Below are positions 57,001 to 63,000 of a stretch of 64,000 bases of DNA, one piece after another. The DNA comes from Escherichia coli (GTDB lineage: Bacteria; Pseudomonadota; Gammaproteobacteria; Enterobacterales; Enterobacteriaceae), in NCBI RefSeq assembly GCF_003991155.1, contig NZ_CP031293.1; one strand, written 5' to 3'. Each line of letters begins with the position of its first letter. Within the stretch, counting starts at the first letter, position 1. The position numbers are program-made.

Positions 57001-60000
57001 CGGCTGATCATGGTTTTCATGCGCATGCGGTTTTCTGGATCGATCGTCAGAGGGTTAAAAAAATATATCCCTTTGCGGAGCGGATTACGGAATGCTGGCG
57101 GTCTATTACGCATAACAGCGGTTCGGTACATCGCTGTACATATCAGCCGCATTATACATACAACATCAACATTCCTGTGCGCCACAACGATCCTGAAAGC
57201 ATCAATAATATTCGCGGTGCCCTGCATTATCTGGCGAAAGAAGAGCAAAAAGACGGGTTGTGTGCCTACGGCTGCAATGAAGTTCCTGAACGTCCTGCTG
57301 CAGGGCGTCCTCGTAAGCCTCACTTCTGAAGCTTAAGGCCTGAGCCTCCGCTCCTGGAAACACTCCGTCGGTAAAACCTTACCACCTTGCTTAATGATGT
57401 GAACTGAAGTCAACGGAGATCATTCATCCTGAACCTGAATCCGGTGTTCTGTCCCTTATCTTCCCGTTCTGCTTCAGTTCTTCACTTATTCCATCAACCC
57501 CATCCGCAAACCATAACACGTCAGCGCATCCACGGGCAGGACGCGTTGTGGGCTGCGCATAACGGAACATATCTTATGAATGCTATTCCTTATTTCGACT
57601 ATAGCCTGGCACCCTTCTGGCCATCTTATCAGAACAAAGTCATCGGCGTCCTTGAGCGTGCGCTACGTGAGCAGTCCTGCGCCCGGGTACGGCGGATCCT
57701 GCTTCGCCTGCCGGGGGAACATGACAACATCTTCAGTGACAGAAAAACCTGGTTCGGTATGGCCTTTATCGAAACTGTCAGTGCGCTGATGAATGCAACC
57801 CCCGGACGCGACCTCTGCTGGCTCCTGACCCGTCATCCTGAAAAGCCGGAATACCACGTGGTGCTGTGTGTCAGACAGGAGTATTTCGACGGCCCTGAAC
57901 TGGACCGGCTGATTCTGGATGCCTGGAGCAACGTACTGGGCTTCGCGTCACCGGGTTAAGCAAAGCCGTATCAGAAGCAGATCACCCGGGATGTAGTACT
58001 GGACAGTCGTTCGCCGGACTGCGAAGACCTGTTTAAAGACCTGATCTGGGCATTCAGCGATTTTGCCCGCGATCGTCGTGGTGTGTGCGATCCGGAAGCT
58101 CGTTGCCTTGCCGGTAATCCCGGGTATCCCGGATCTGCAGGACCGTTCTGAAAACACGGCTCAGCATCTTCTTCCGCATTTGCACAACCTTCATAAATCT
58201 CACAAAGGACATTCTGACCATGTTGACCACAACAAACCACGACAGCGTGTTGCTGCGTGCCGACGATCCCCTGATCGACATGAACTACATCACCAGTTTC
58301 ACTGGCATGACAGATAAATGGTTTTACAAGCTGATCAGTGAAGGCCATTTCCCTAAACCCATCAAACTGGGGCGCAGCAGCCGCTGGTACAAAAGTGAGG
58401 TGGAGCAGTGGATGCAGCAACGAATCGAGGAATCCCGGGGGGCAGCAGCATGAAACGTGTTGTAATGCCGGCGCTGGTATTGCGGAAATCAGCCCTGTCC
58501 CCGATGCTGGCGACACTCCCGCTCATCTTTCAGCTGACTCCTCTGGTCAGCCAACTGTTTGTCATCATTTCCTGACTGATTCGTCATTCCCTTCGTCCCG
58601 CCAGTCGCTGGTGTTTGTATTGTACCGTGCCGGTGTTGATGTGCGCTTTCCGTGTGTCTGCACCGGCTTAACAAAATTCAACAGGGTTTGAAAAGGAACA
58701 TTTCGTGCAAATAACCGAAGCCTTAATTTCAGAGCCGGGAGACATCCGGCGTTTTGTTCAGCAGGCGGTGGACCACTGGCCGCATCTGCTGGCATTTTAC
58801 TTCACACTCCATTCGGCAGAAGGAAATATCAACGGGCGACAGATTCATGCATTCTGTACTTCCTTTTACCGACAGGTGCACGAACGTATTACTGAGCGTA
58901 ATCACACGGCCAGTCCATCCTCGCCGGTGGTATTACGCTGGTTGCGGGAACAACATGGAGGAGCAACAATACGATGCCTGTTGCTGCTCAGCCAGACGAG
59001 CATTTGCCATCCGCGGGCCAGTGCCACGGTTGATGAACAATGTTCGCAAGTGGTGGATTTGCTGCAACAGAGCTGGCAGGTGATAAGTGCTGGCGGACAA
59101 TGCCGGGTGGAAAGGTGTTTTCGGGTTGCCCGGGGTGATACATCCGGCCAGTATGTTGCGTTAAAAACAGTCGCATTGTCTCTGGGGTTACCGGTTGTGA
59201 CCGCCATTACCCATCGTCCGGTACAGCGCTGTACATTGATTACAGCTCAGTGAATCAGCGCTTTCTGGCTTTTCGTCGGTCATTCTGTCAACGCCACGAT
59301 GTTTGACCGTTATGGGGATGCGGACGATTTCCTGCACAGCGTTGTTTCACGGTGGTGGATGATGCAGCACCGCTGTTAAAAACAGTCGTTCAGTCCTTTG
59401 TGTTACCGGTTATGACAACAATCAGCTGGTGATGGTCGTGTGAACCAGCTGCGCTTCCGTTGATTCTTATGGACTGATAAAGTTTTGTCTGCTGAATCTT
59501 TATACGGAATTCTTTTCAGTATGCGTACACGAATTGATTATCTGGCGGATAAATACAGTTTTACTGAGCTGAATGAGTCTCCCCGTCTTCGCCGGCAGTG
59601 GCAGGATGTTCTGGAGGAGTGTCGGCAGACAGAGGCAGGGCCAGAAGAACGGTTGCGTATTGCACTGTTGAATGTGGATTACGTCACCAGTTTTGAACTG
59701 CCTTTTCGCTTGTTGCTTACCCGTACACCACAACTGACTGCTATGCTGCGTGAAGAATGGGATATCAGCCAGAAAAATGTGGTGTTCAACGATAAACGCT
59801 TTGGCTGCGTGTACAGCCTGAAGGCCAGTCTTTGTGGTGTGCTTCAGGCCGATGCTTAGGCGTTATACGAATCCGGCAGAGTAACGGAAGCCGCGTGTAT
59901 GGCTCATTCCCGGAGAAGAATCCACGATGTGCATGTAAGAGTGCCAACCGACATCACCACGGAAGCCCTGCAGCGTATCGGCAATGGTTTGTTCCAGACC

Positions 60001-63000
60001 ATGCCGCTTACAGACCTCGAAATCAGTCACCGTGCAAGGTTCATAACCGCCAATCTGAAATGCCACCACCACAAAATCGGCATCCTGTAAGGCTTCTTTC
60101 TGTTGGGTGTGGCAGGTGATTTTGCCGCTGGCCCCTGCTGAATCCATCAGCTTACGCACCACAATATGCGACTCTTCCCGGCGGGTGGGATCAATGTCCA
60201 TCAGGGCAATATGCGCCGTTTTCAGCGCCTCACGATGGAACACATCACCAAGAATATTTTTAACGAAAATCGTCGAACCAGCGCCGATAAATGTAATTTT
60301 GGGTGCAGACATCATGCAGATCTCCTGGCTTGCTTGATAACTTCATCATGGCAGGCGAATCTGCAGAAAACCTCCGGCTTCCAGATTGAGAATTCCCATA
60401 AACTCAGATCCTGCGTGAAGCATCAGTAAATCTGAGTTTATGGGAATAAATTACCTGAAAAGAAGAGTTTTCGGCCTCATGATGCTCGGACGGACCCCTC
60501 TCCTCTCTGGGTAGAGGGTGAAAACCGTGCTCCCACTCGCAGTCATCCTCCCTCACTCCTGCCATAATTCTGATATTCCAGGAAAGAGAGCCATCCATGA
60601 ATACAGATCTCTTTATGTGCAGCAGTGCTTTAATCATCCCCGTGCCAGTAATAGCAGGGGTGAAAGATCTCGAAATAACACTGATAATCAGGGCGACGAT
60701 CCCAGCCGGCTTCGCGTTTTTATCGCTGCCTGCCGCGCCTTTCTTCTCCAGCAGCACATTATAGAGCAGGCGATAAACCTGCTGTACCTCATTACCAATA
60801 ACTATCTGGAACTGAAGCCTTTCTCCACCACGCAGATCAGGCCAGGGAGGGCACCAATCTGCGCATTGTTAACCTTTGAGCTGTCGTTGAACTCGGGGTA
60901 AGCAATGGTGAGCATACGGATGTTTTCCGCACCGCCCATCACGTAGAGGATTTTGTCTGCTGTTTCGTTATAGTTCATAGTGTCCCCTAGTGTTGGCGCA
61001 AAAAAGACCAAAACGGCAGTGGCAATGGCATTCTCCAGCGTTTAAACGGAGAGCCGGATGCGTTGAAAGGTGCTGCTCCGGTTCGGAGAGGAGATACTGG
61101 GAAATAGTTCGACTACCCCCTATCTCTTACTCTACTCTGGACAGGTTAACGATGAGATACCTCACAGTAATATTTGCTCTGTTCGCAAGAAAGCTAGTGG
61201 GATGGGTAATGTTGTTGGACTGAATCGCCACGGATAATCAGGCATTTCTGAGTTGTTTCAAGAAGGCGGCATTATTTGTGCTGCTCGTATCCCGGTCATC
61301 AGTGAACCGGTGAACGTAAATCAGCCGGAGGCACGATTTGGGCAAAAGAGATTTCCTGACAGGCAAGAAGCCAGCGAATGGCTGGCTTCCTGAAGGATTT
61401 AGCCAAATTTAGGTAACACGTTAAAGACGTTACCGAACCAGCATAAAATTACGGTTATACCAAAGAGAATGACAATCGCCGGAATAAGATTGCCGCCCCA
61501 GACTGTGAACATCTGATTGGGAAATTTCTTGCGGGCTTTGATTGCCAGCACTGCGGGAATAATGACCGCCCAGATGGTGGCGCACAGTCCGGCACCGCCG
61601 ATCCCGTAAATAAAGCCGTTCGGGAAGATCAGATACAACAACGCGGGTGGCAGGAAGGTTAACAGCACGGTTTTGAAACGCCCGGCGTGGGAGTTATCAA
61701 TCTTAAACAGATCCGCCAGATAATCGAACAATCCCAGCGTGACACCAAAGAACGAACTGGCAACAGCTAAGTTAGAGAACACCAGCAGGCAAAACTCGAT
61801 AATCCCATGCTGTTTGGTGCCGAGGAATGATTTCACCAGCGAATCAACGTTGCCGCCTGAGGAGATTATCGCCTTAAAGCTTTCTCGCGGGATATTCCCC
61901 ATCGTGCAATAGAGCCAGAAGAGATAAATCACCAGCGCCAGCAGCGAACCGAAGACCACGCTTTTGATTAGCTTATCTTTGCGTTTTCCATAGCAAATAA
62001 TCAGGCTGGGAATATTGCCGTGGAAACCAAATGACGCCAGACACACCGGCAAAGCCATAAAGATATACGGGAAGTAAGACTTACCCGCAGTGGAGCTGGC
62101 TGCATCGCGCAGAATGGAATAATCGGCCTGGAAGAAGAGAGAGCCAAACACGATCACAAAGGAGATAATCTTCAGCCCGAGGAACAATGAGGTAATACGA
62201 CTGGCGGCTAACGAACTTATCCACAATACGCTGGCAACGAAAATGGCTGTGCAGACTCCGACAATACGTGGATTAGCGTGATAACTCAGATTCATTGATA
62301 TCGTTTCGCTAATGATTGCGCCGTTAGCAGAAATATAGGCATAAGTGAGGATATAGAGAACGAAGGCAACGGTAATACCGCTGATAATGTTCCAGGTGTT
62401 ACCGATTAAATCTTTGGCGATGGTGTTAAAACTGGATCCGACGGGATAGTTTAAATTTGCTTCTAATAACAATAACCCGGAATGAAGCATTGAAAACCAG
62501 GCAATGATAAGGATAAAGGCTCCCCAGAAAAACCAGGCACCGGCAAGATCAACAGGTAAAGCAAACATCCCACCGCCAATTACCGTACCGGCTATAACCA
62601 TAACACCCCAAAATGCAGAGTGTTTTTTTTCAGCTTGTTCAGTCATGATGCCACCTTTAGATGAAGGCTATTTTTATTATTGAGGATGTAGGGTAAGAGA
62701 GTGGCTAACATCCTTATAGCCACTCTGAGTGTTTTAATTAAACTTCTTTCAGTTTTGCGGTGAAGTGACGCAATACTTTCGGTTCGTAGGTAAAGGTTAA
62801 CCCTTTAATATTCGCCGCGTTCTCTTTCACATGTTTAAAGGCTTCAATAATGAAGTCCATATGTGTTTGAGTATATGTTGCGCGCGGAATGGTTAAACGC
62901 AGCAGTTCAGCCGGGCATGGCAGTTGTTTACCGGTTTTCGGATCGCGGCCTAACAGGAAAGAGCCAATTTCTACCGCACGGATACCGGCGACTTTATACA

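Follow-up and report, generated by a model that had tools for sequence, protein, structure and literature searches.

The window analysed here, a 64,000-nucleotide stretch of an Escherichia coli genome (contig NZ_CP031293.1), carries sequence resembling the control region of the mel locus, which raises the question of whether this is the genome's own locus eroded in place or a piece of mel DNA joined to unrelated surroundings. The first-pass annotation had taken the former view, describing two breakpoints that excised most of melR and melA and left the divergent promoter. BLAST against the E. coli mel region returned up to about 97% nucleotide identity, as that annotation had expected, and column-by-column comparison with native loci, which was used to set the boundaries, placed mel homology from 59971 to 60625. 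Its identity to the E. coli melA-melR region is 96-97%, the homology running through the intergenic part, and the segment consists of the first 115 codons of melA on the minus strand, the complete 281-nt divergent regulatory region and 29 nt of melR. There are thus exactly two breakpoints with a complete promoter region between them, the part of the earlier proposal that stands; the loss in place from a native locus does not. The segment, its coding remnants, its neighbours and the two junctions are as follows.

59971..60625: whole mel-derived segment, 655 bp, with the melA 5' end, the melA-melR intergenic region and the melR start (BLAST; column-by-column comparison)
59971..60315, minus strand: melA' stub, first 115 codons of alpha-galactosidase, only the NAD-binding N-terminal part of glycoside hydrolase family 4 (GH4) (Pfam, NCBIfam, PGAP)
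59863..60315, minus strand: chimeric 150-aa ORF, 115 MelA codons followed by 35 codons read antisense from the IS66 fragment (ORF reading and comparison)
60597..60625, plus strand: melR' stub, 9 codons and 2 nt (MNTDLFMCSS), with a private ACG to CTC change (T5L) at 60609-60611
59836..59981, plus strand: piece from within an ISCro1-like transposase gene of the IS66 family, shortened by a 12-nt deletion; identity 88%, or 94% when compared with another copy
60620..61011, minus strand: N-terminal piece, about 125 codons and frameshifted, of a bglF-like gene for a beta-glucoside PTS EIIBCA, together with some of the sequence upstream of that gene
59971..59981: left junction, 11-nt microhomology CAGCGTATCGG common to the IS66 transposase fragment and melA (ISCro1-like homology 59836-59981, mel from 59971)
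60620..60625: right junction, CAGCAG common to the melR stub and the bglF-like fragment (mel ends at 60625, bglF homology reaches 60620)

In about 5,400 of the 5,426 E. coli genomes, a native mel locus matches the segment at 91-97.3% identity (5,398 records, each a genome, cover at least 80% of the fragment). The best native match was that of strain 2018-05-2CC (97.26%, BLAST), and identity to the K-12-like allele is 96.9%. The sequence comparison supports assignment to melA (97% nucleotide identity) rather than to another GH4 gene, an alternative that the first-pass annotation had allowed for. The minus-strand ORF does start as MelA, as had been described, although it was said to diverge after about 117 codons; native melA homology ends at 59971, giving a stub of 345 nt, or 115 codons. 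Within the ORF, the Pfam family Glyco_hydro_4 (PF02056) matches residues 6-115 (model positions 1-109 of 183, E 4.9e-41), and the NCBIfam alpha-galactosidase profile PRK15076 matches residues 4-115 (profile 2-113 of 432) with 170.9 bits, below its cut-off of 486. The N-terminal NAD-binding Rossmann segment with its GAGS motif is present (IGAGS at residues 10-14), and the metal-binding and catalytic residues are missing with the remainder of the GH4 domain and the C-terminal domain, leaving 115 of about 451 codons. Keeping only part of the NAD-binding N-terminal domain, the MelA stub cannot yield a working protein. The exact 150-aa chimeric product has been called in many public assemblies (98 index blocks); a family search gave it no support beyond the melA stub.

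On the plus strand, the ORF starting MNTDLFMCSS was correctly recognised in the first pass as the start of melR, its ATG lying at 60597 and not at about 60598. It continues beyond the end of mel homology into unrelated sequence up to 60764, and the resulting 55-aa ORF has no family match. With 10 codons derived from MelR, and with both the N-terminal melibiose-binding domain and the C-terminal double helix-turn-helix domain missing, this stub has neither a ligand-binding nor a DNA-binding domain and cannot yield a working protein. Its fifth codon is CTC (Leu) in place of the native ACG (Thr), a change seen in no native locus. By megablast of the CTC region this variant was confined to 21 carrier genomes, and an exact-pattern scan of GTDB species representatives did not detect it.

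The fragment stands in a run of gene remnants in the order ECs1377-family', IS66 tnp', mel', bglF' and group II intron', within a mobile genomic island that adjoins setC. This border presumably marks the selC site, with selC itself beyond the window at the far end of the island; ARAGORN and Rfam detected neither selC nor any other tRNA within the window. On the island, a second tnaCAB operon adjoins the run, with its tnaB about 0.8 kb from the mel fragment. This extra operon is the more noteworthy biology nearby, and a literature search for a second tna operon in an island found nothing relevant.

The view that this is the genome's own mel locus, deprived of most of melA and melR by two deletions in place, would account for two clean breakpoints that leave the promoter region, and mel erosion does occur in the carrier lineage, where melB is missing from the native locus. 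However, the fragment is bordered by part of an IS66 transposase gene and by a bglF-like pseudogene, in an island by tnaB, and not by adiA and yjdF. In the carrier AR Bank #0349, moreover, full-length native melA and melR are found at 4.469-4.472 Mb, about 4.47 Mb from the fragment, which is 4% diverged from them, and all 21 carriers have mel sequence at two places. In-situ decay was rejected on the island flanks, the intact native melA and melR and this divergence, and is considered extremely unlikely. The proposal that most of melR and melA had been excised from the native locus accordingly fails, the fragment not lying between adiA and yjdF/melB and the native copies being intact elsewhere; the search for an intact melRAB that had been advised recovered melA and melR, with melB missing. 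Two in-situ excisions are not supported, and the fragment is better described as an ectopic copy, either foreign or ancient, that has been joined to unrelated DNA. The segment is E. coli-type sequence and an ectopic orphan copy, not a native locus eroded in place.

Sequence so clearly of E. coli type (96-97%) could also be expected if the host's own mel control region had been copied into the island by a recent segmental duplication. The fragment of AR Bank #0349 is, however, 96.0% identical to that genome's own native locus and is therefore not a recent self-duplication; loci of other strains are closer (97.3%), and none of the approximately 5,400 native loci reaches 99%. The same fragment also occurs in islands with different outer contexts: the 2-kb stretch containing it is 100% identical in 21 of the 5,426 complete E. 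coli genomes, is present in further assemblies, many of them drafts, and is found in at least four different outer contexts. Self-duplication was rejected on the identity to the host copy and the lack of a native locus at or above 99%, and is regarded as highly improbable. Because of these four or more contexts, the stretch is taken to move as part of an island module. The distribution bears on a further reading, that of an assembly or sequencing chimera, for which nothing speaks but the odd mosaic appearance; an identical stretch in 21 complete genomes, independent of one another and differing in laboratory, host and country of origin, and in many drafts, led to its rejection, and it can be considered vanishingly improbable.

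With these readings set aside, the junctions give an indication of how the ectopic copy may have arisen. The microhomology present at both junctions points to illegitimate recombination. In this scheme, a piece of a mel locus would have been joined to unrelated DNA on both sides by illegitimate recombination guided by microhomology, of 11 nt at the left junction and about 6 nt at the right one, neither IS transposition nor in-situ deletion of a native locus would have made the junctions, and the joined fragment would then have travelled with the island. The 6-nt overlap on the right is less certain than the one on the left as the bglF gene of the Pantoea sp. JZ2 plasmid pJZ2-02 had to stand in for the bglF donor; the bglF-like fragment shows 78% nucleotide identity to it, with several indels. 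A search of plasmids gave nothing for bglF beyond 78-80% identical Pantoea bglF, and the fragment itself shows a weak N-terminal match to TIGR01995. No donor mel allele was found by exact-pattern scans of GTDB representatives or megablast of the CTC region, and no genome with bglF' or the island tna flank in the absence of mel' was detected in a distant-mode search, 60620-61400 being fully covered only in the same 21 genomes. The suggested order and mechanism of joining are read from the junction anatomy, because the search gave neither a donor allele nor a pre-truncation intermediate. Taken together, the fragment is very probably a functionless relic of a mel locus of E. coli type in an ectopic position, put in place by microhomology-guided joining and since moved with the island.

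How much of the control region has been kept is seen from its operators. The first-pass annotation had reported an 18-bp inverted repeat at about 60391 to 60447 and likened it to MelR operators. The repeat is perfect, with 18-nt arms at 60392-60409 and 60430-60447 that are 100% complementary and separated by a 20-nt spacer, the A at 60391 not being part of it; the 18-mer occurs twice in the window at up to three mismatches against 0.09 expected by chance. The arms correspond to MelR sites 2 and 1, which we take to be centred at -62.5 and -100.5, in keeping with the 38-bp spacing between their centres. Sites 2' and 1' were placed on the assumption that they lie at -42.5 from the melAB start and at -120.5, respectively. 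The elements of the control region are as follows.

60392..60409: MelR site 2, 18 bp with the consensus sequence, centred at 60400.5, forming the first of the two repeat arms
60430..60447: MelR site 1, 18 bp, identical to site 2 and inverted, centre 60438.5, the other arm of the repeat
60372..60389: putative MelR site 2', overlapping the melAB -35 region, with a private G to A change at 60385
60450..60467: putative MelR site 1', with a private C to A change at 60463
60409..60430: CRP1 site between MelR sites 2 and 1, TGCGT-GAAGCA-TCAGT, centre 60419.5
60523..60544: CRP2 site at the melR promoter, CGTGC-TCCCAC-TCGCA, centred at 60533.5 (-41.5)
60563..60585, plus strand: melR promoter, with -10 CATAAT at 60563-60568, predicted +1 near 60575 and predicted MelR site R at 60568-60585
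60336..60339, minus strand: predicted melAB transcription start near 60338 (60575 minus 237), with a private 1-nt deletion (GAAT to GAT)

In the described system, site 2 is located at -174.5 from the melR start, CRP1 lies between sites 1 and 2, a site 2' exists, a CRP site lies 41 bp upstream of the melR start, the melR -10 hexamer is 5'-CATAAT-3' with site R overlapping the transcript start, and the melR and melAB starts are 237 bp apart (PMC2377442). With the melR +1 near 60575, the published distance predicts a centre for site 2 of 60400.5, which is the centre observed. This agreement in geometry with PMC2377442 supports the reading of the inverted repeat as the MelR operator pair of sites 2 and 1. 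The fragment is like the E. coli K-12 melR-melAB region studied by the Busby laboratory (PMC2377442) in its identical inverted 18-bp sites 38 bp apart with CRP1 between them, its CATAAT -10 region, the position of CRP2 at about -41 and the spacing of the two starts, which is 237 bp there and 236 bp here. In contrast to that region, it does not control full-length melAB and melR at the adiA-yjdF position, both genes being truncated and flanked by IS66' and bglF' in a genomic island; it has no functional melA/melB and melR flanks, is a second copy in the genome, and differs by private changes at the melAB start and within sites 2' and 1'.

The private changes comprise L46R in melA', the 1-nt deletion at the melAB start, those in sites 2' and 1', and ACG to CTC in melR'; the variant of the site-2' region was absent from GTDB species representatives in an exact-pattern scan. 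Sites 1, 2 and R, CRP2 and the melR -10 region are unchanged from K-12-type alleles, with zero differences across 60563-60585, and the T at 60423 in CRP1 is also found in MNCRE44, the sole phylogroup-B2 native allele compared. Such changes would be consistent with relaxed constraint. They are nevertheless unevenly spread, with one in 345 coding nt against eight events in 310 nt outside melA, so that a claim that the fragment is decaying is weak; uniform later decay fits this pattern less well than divergence that preceded truncation, in a donor locus still functional at the time. The near-intact state of the regulatory region could also reflect retention by selection rather than youth.

This last point leads to the reading that the fragment is a co-opted module, an orphan operator and promoter kept because MelR and cAMP-CRP act on it, whether as a decoy titrating MelR, through plus-strand transcripts from the melR promoter that cross the junk and enter the convergent island tnaB at its 3' end, or through the melAB promoter driving the 150-aa ORF. 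None of the five MelR sites, two CRP sites and two promoters has been lost, and the strongest elements are unchanged; native MelR is available in trans, a search of the plus strand from 60575 to tnaB gave no terminator-like site, and the segment is 100% conserved across island variants that differ elsewhere by 0.5-2%. Recent spread would explain that conservation equally well, however, and pseudogene debris lies directly downstream of both promoters, sites 2' and 1' and the melAB start carry private changes, and, apart from the melA stub, no family match supports either the 150-aa or the 55-aa ORF. There is thus a slim chance at best that the module has been co-opted. A live control region in the stronger sense, in which MelR and cAMP-CRP would occupy a second target titrating the autoregulated activator and the CRP-dependent melR promoter would read into the 3' end of tnaCAB, is very unlikely; were it true, carbon-source status would be coupled to expression of an extra tryptophanase (indole) operon. 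It may be expected, because the DNA elements are almost intact, that native MelR and cAMP-CRP still bind the fragment, and they may fire both promoters into junk. As a non-functional relic, the fragment probably derives no selective value from such residual activity.

The melA piece has already been annotated by RefSeq/PGAP as a partial pseudogene (for example BEN53_RS22575 on NZ_CP029747.1, 'melA alpha-galactosidase, incomplete, missing C-terminus'), which is the same object, and its neighbours are also flagged as pseudogenes ('IS66 family transposase, internal stop, missing N- and C-terminus' and 'frameshifted; missing C-terminus' for the bglF-like piece). That annotation omits the operator and promoter region, the melR stub, the origin and the junctions. 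The tRNA-associated genomic islands found in Enterobacteriaceae contain 'scrapyards' of gene fragments, and illegitimate recombination mediated by microhomology is known, for example as short-patch double illegitimate recombination. The fragment resembles such scrapyards as short core-genome DNA with microhomology junctions on both sides among IS and intron debris. Here, neither a donor nor an 'empty site' of the recipient was recovered, and the choice between insertion of a patch and two successive deletions would have to be read from junction anatomy only.

The stretch 59971-60625 is therefore a real but ordinary leftover of the E. coli mel control region, with little significance beyond correct annotation. 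Its junction microhomologies illustrate, in a small but clean case, how illegitimate recombination builds island mosaics, and a second mel copy could mislead ChIP, promoter-prediction and read-mapping analyses of the mel locus. It should also be noted that an island can carry short core-genome regulatory DNA as debris, and that the carriers have a predicted second set of high-affinity MelR and CRP sites which could slightly perturb mel regulation.

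Two ORFs in the ORF listing carry mel sequence at their start:

59863–60315, minus strand: 150-aa ORF beginning MMSAPKITFIGAGSTIFVKN
60597–60764, plus strand: 55-aa ORF beginning MNTDLFMCSS

Pairwise and multiple alignments placed the limits of mel homology at 59971 and 60625, in agreement with the two breakpoints proposed by the first-pass annotation. The fragment consists of 345 nt of melA, 281 nt of intergenic sequence (282 nt in native loci) and 29 nt of melR. The minus-strand ORF had rightly been described as MelA-like and then divergent, although the MelA part is 115 codons long instead of about 117, and the melR-like stub was present with its start codon at 60597 rather than about 60598. 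The MelA portion of the 150-aa ORF, encoded by 59971–60315, matched Pfam Glyco_hydro_4 (model positions 1–109 of 183) and NCBIfam alpha-galactosidase PRK15076 (positions 2–113 of 432; 170.9 bits, below the cut-off of 486). The GH4 stub is melA and no other GH4 gene, with only about a quarter of melA there.

In a megablast search of 5,426 complete E. coli genomes, the whole of 59400–61400 (2 kb) was found at 100% identity in 21 genomes, with the match in nearly all remaining genomes confined to 59964/59971–60625, annotated melA/melR, at no more than 97.3%. When only the mel part was searched, matches came from 5,400 genomes of the set (4,332 records at 95–99% identity and 1,047 at 90–95%); identity of at least 99% was restricted to the 21 carriers, each having two mel places. 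In the carrier AR Bank #0349 these are the fragment, at 92 kb, and a native locus, yjdF-melA-melR-adiA, at 4.469–4.472 Mb, in which melA (1,356 nt) and melR (909 nt) are full-length without pseudogene flags. This rules out the first-pass view of a native locus eroded in place, the fragment being ectopic and island-borne. Recent copying of the host's own locus is also ruled out, as native and island copies are only 96.0% identical (25 mismatches and 1 gap in 656) and some other strains reach 97.3%. It should also be noted that this native locus (L004, 14022–16024) lacks melB, with yjdF abutting the end of melA and 20 bp in place of approximately 1.66 kb of the reference strain. The same arrangement in ST131-type MNCRE44 and in GPEC1337 (also L008 and L009) shows this to be a lineage polymorphism.

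The gene order of the window is ilvBN-uhp-ade-nepI-iatC-eilA-eip-yicS-nlpA-yicL-setC followed by the island, which contains CP4-like genes, IS3, pseudouridine and nucleoside genes, YfjJ and AlpA. No tRNA was found within the 64-kb window; selC is presumably located at the island's far end. Between ilvN and uhpA, which are neighbours in K-12, are two ORFs annotated as hypothetical (160 aa and 479 aa; 1858–4058, plus strand) with no PADLOC or NCBIfam match. The inverse autotransporter gene iatC (9.97 kb), adjoined by the eilA/eip type III-related cluster, has a long array of repeats of approximately 290 nt (about 18800–23200; 82–88% mutually identical by self-matches). In strain 2016C-3878, where the corresponding region is identical, PGAP annotates the following around the fragment, in left-to-right order:

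DNA-binding/ECs1377 family gene, truncated
IS66-family transposase fragment with an internal stop
melA, incomplete
beta-glucoside PTS IIABC gene, frameshifted and incomplete
tnaB, tnaA and tnaC, all intact
IS110 and ISCro1 debris

Between the bglF fragment and tnaB lies an orphan 3′ group II intron fragment (61018–61216; Rfam RF00029 domain match at 61049–61135, plus strand, 50.1 bits), 81–87% identical to group II intron/ltrA regions in other E. coli. The island tnaCAB (tryptophanase) operon (61399–64000, minus strand, extending past the window end; L001, 14000–17035) is a second copy with 94.9% nucleotide identity to the carrier's native operon, which is still present beside mnmE. At the amino-acid level TnaA is 99.8% and TnaB 97.6% identical between the two, whereas two of the 24 TnaC residues are changed (IVEHHP in one copy, IVDHRP in the other); carriers thus have two indole-producing operons.

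At the left junction, homology to internal sequence of an ISCro1-like transposase gene, with no IS end, spans 59836–59981 and overlaps the mel homology by 11 nt, CAGCGTATCGG, common to both parents (8 nt if the donor carried the K-12-type A at 59973). At the right junction, bglF homology reaches 60620, the overlap being CAGCAG. The bglF fragment matches a Pantoea plasmid gene at 78%, with several indels through which both the reading frame and the EIIB active-site region are lost. Joins of this kind, made between internal sequences that share microhomology, point to illegitimate recombination, which may have proceeded by two successive deletions in a donor or by short-patch insertion, and do not suggest transposition or site-specific recombination as the joining route. 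Searches for donor alleles and intermediates found no donor or intermediate arrangement of the fragment.

The inverted repeat reported between the two ORFs at about 60391..60447 is perfect, with arms of 18 nt, not 19 (60392–60409 and 60430–60447), spaced by 20 nt. Even with up to three mismatches allowed, the 64-kb window holds just two copies of this 18-mer, against a chance expectation of 0.09. In the described mel regulatory region, MelR site 2 is centred at −174.5 relative to the melR start, which is overlapped by site R and lies 237 bp from the melAB start; CRP2 is 41 bp upstream of the melR start and the melR −10 hexamer is CATAAT (PMC2377442). The CATAAT at 60563–60568 sets the melR +1 near 60575, and 60575 − 174.5 gives 60400.5, the exact centre of the left arm. 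By this geometry the likeness to MelR operators suggested earlier is borne out, the left arm corresponding to site 2 and the right arm to site 1. Two further elements were placed:

centre 60533.5 (−41.5): CRP-like site CGTGC-N6-TCGCA
near 60338: melAB start

By the positions known from the Busby-lab literature, sites 2′, 1′ and R would fall at 60372–60389, 60450–60467 and 60568–60585, respectively.

The fragment was set against five native alleles, namely a K-12-like one, that of the best hit, that of the carrier itself, and those of B2 strain MNCRE44 and GPEC1337. It shares with the K-12-type alleles an unaltered −10, CRP2 and sites 1, 2 and R. Private changes were found in site 2′ (G to A at 60385), at 60391 (C to A), in site 1′ (C to A at 60463), in the spacer (60494, 60501 and 60512) and at the melAB start (1-nt deletion, 60336/7). 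Within the coding stubs there is one non-synonymous change in melA at 60179 (L46R) and a change of melR codon 5 from ACG to CTC (T5L). The latter yields ATACAGATCTC (60601–60611), mirroring ATGCAGATCTC at the melA start (60314–60324), 287 nt away (direct repeat D4); this likeness may have arisen through templated multi-nucleotide mutation, or by coincidence.

The MelA and MelR protein stubs cannot function. With the DNA elements near-intact and native MelR available in trans, MelR and CRP probably still bind and the promoters probably fire to some extent, judging from the sequence. These features, together with a simple plus-strand scan that found no terminator-like site from the melR promoter as far as the island's convergent tnaB, would suit a co-opted regulatory role. 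However, what both promoters would transcribe is pseudogene debris, private changes have altered the melAB start and sites 2′ and 1′, and nothing suggests selection on the fragment, making such a role very improbable; the fragment is very probably an inert relic that retains some binding.

Gene calls in many public assemblies (98 index blocks) include exactly this 150-aa chimeric ORF. The outer flanks of the module YfjJ-AlpA-UCP030791-ECs1377′-IS66′-mel′-bglF′-tnaBAC are of at least four kinds, among them IS3 and DUF3987 in locus L013, and IS1 and a sulfatase gene in L014. Of two variants compared, the first has 97.9% identity over 8 kb and the second 99.5%, yet 59400–61450 is identical in both; the flanks and the divergence of up to 2% outside this stretch indicate that the module moved or recombined between backgrounds. 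The first-pass observation of a mel remnant is thus confirmed and its interpretation partly supported. The mel relic is carried along by a mobile island module and is an ordinary feature, its melA piece being already flagged as a partial pseudogene in RefSeq.
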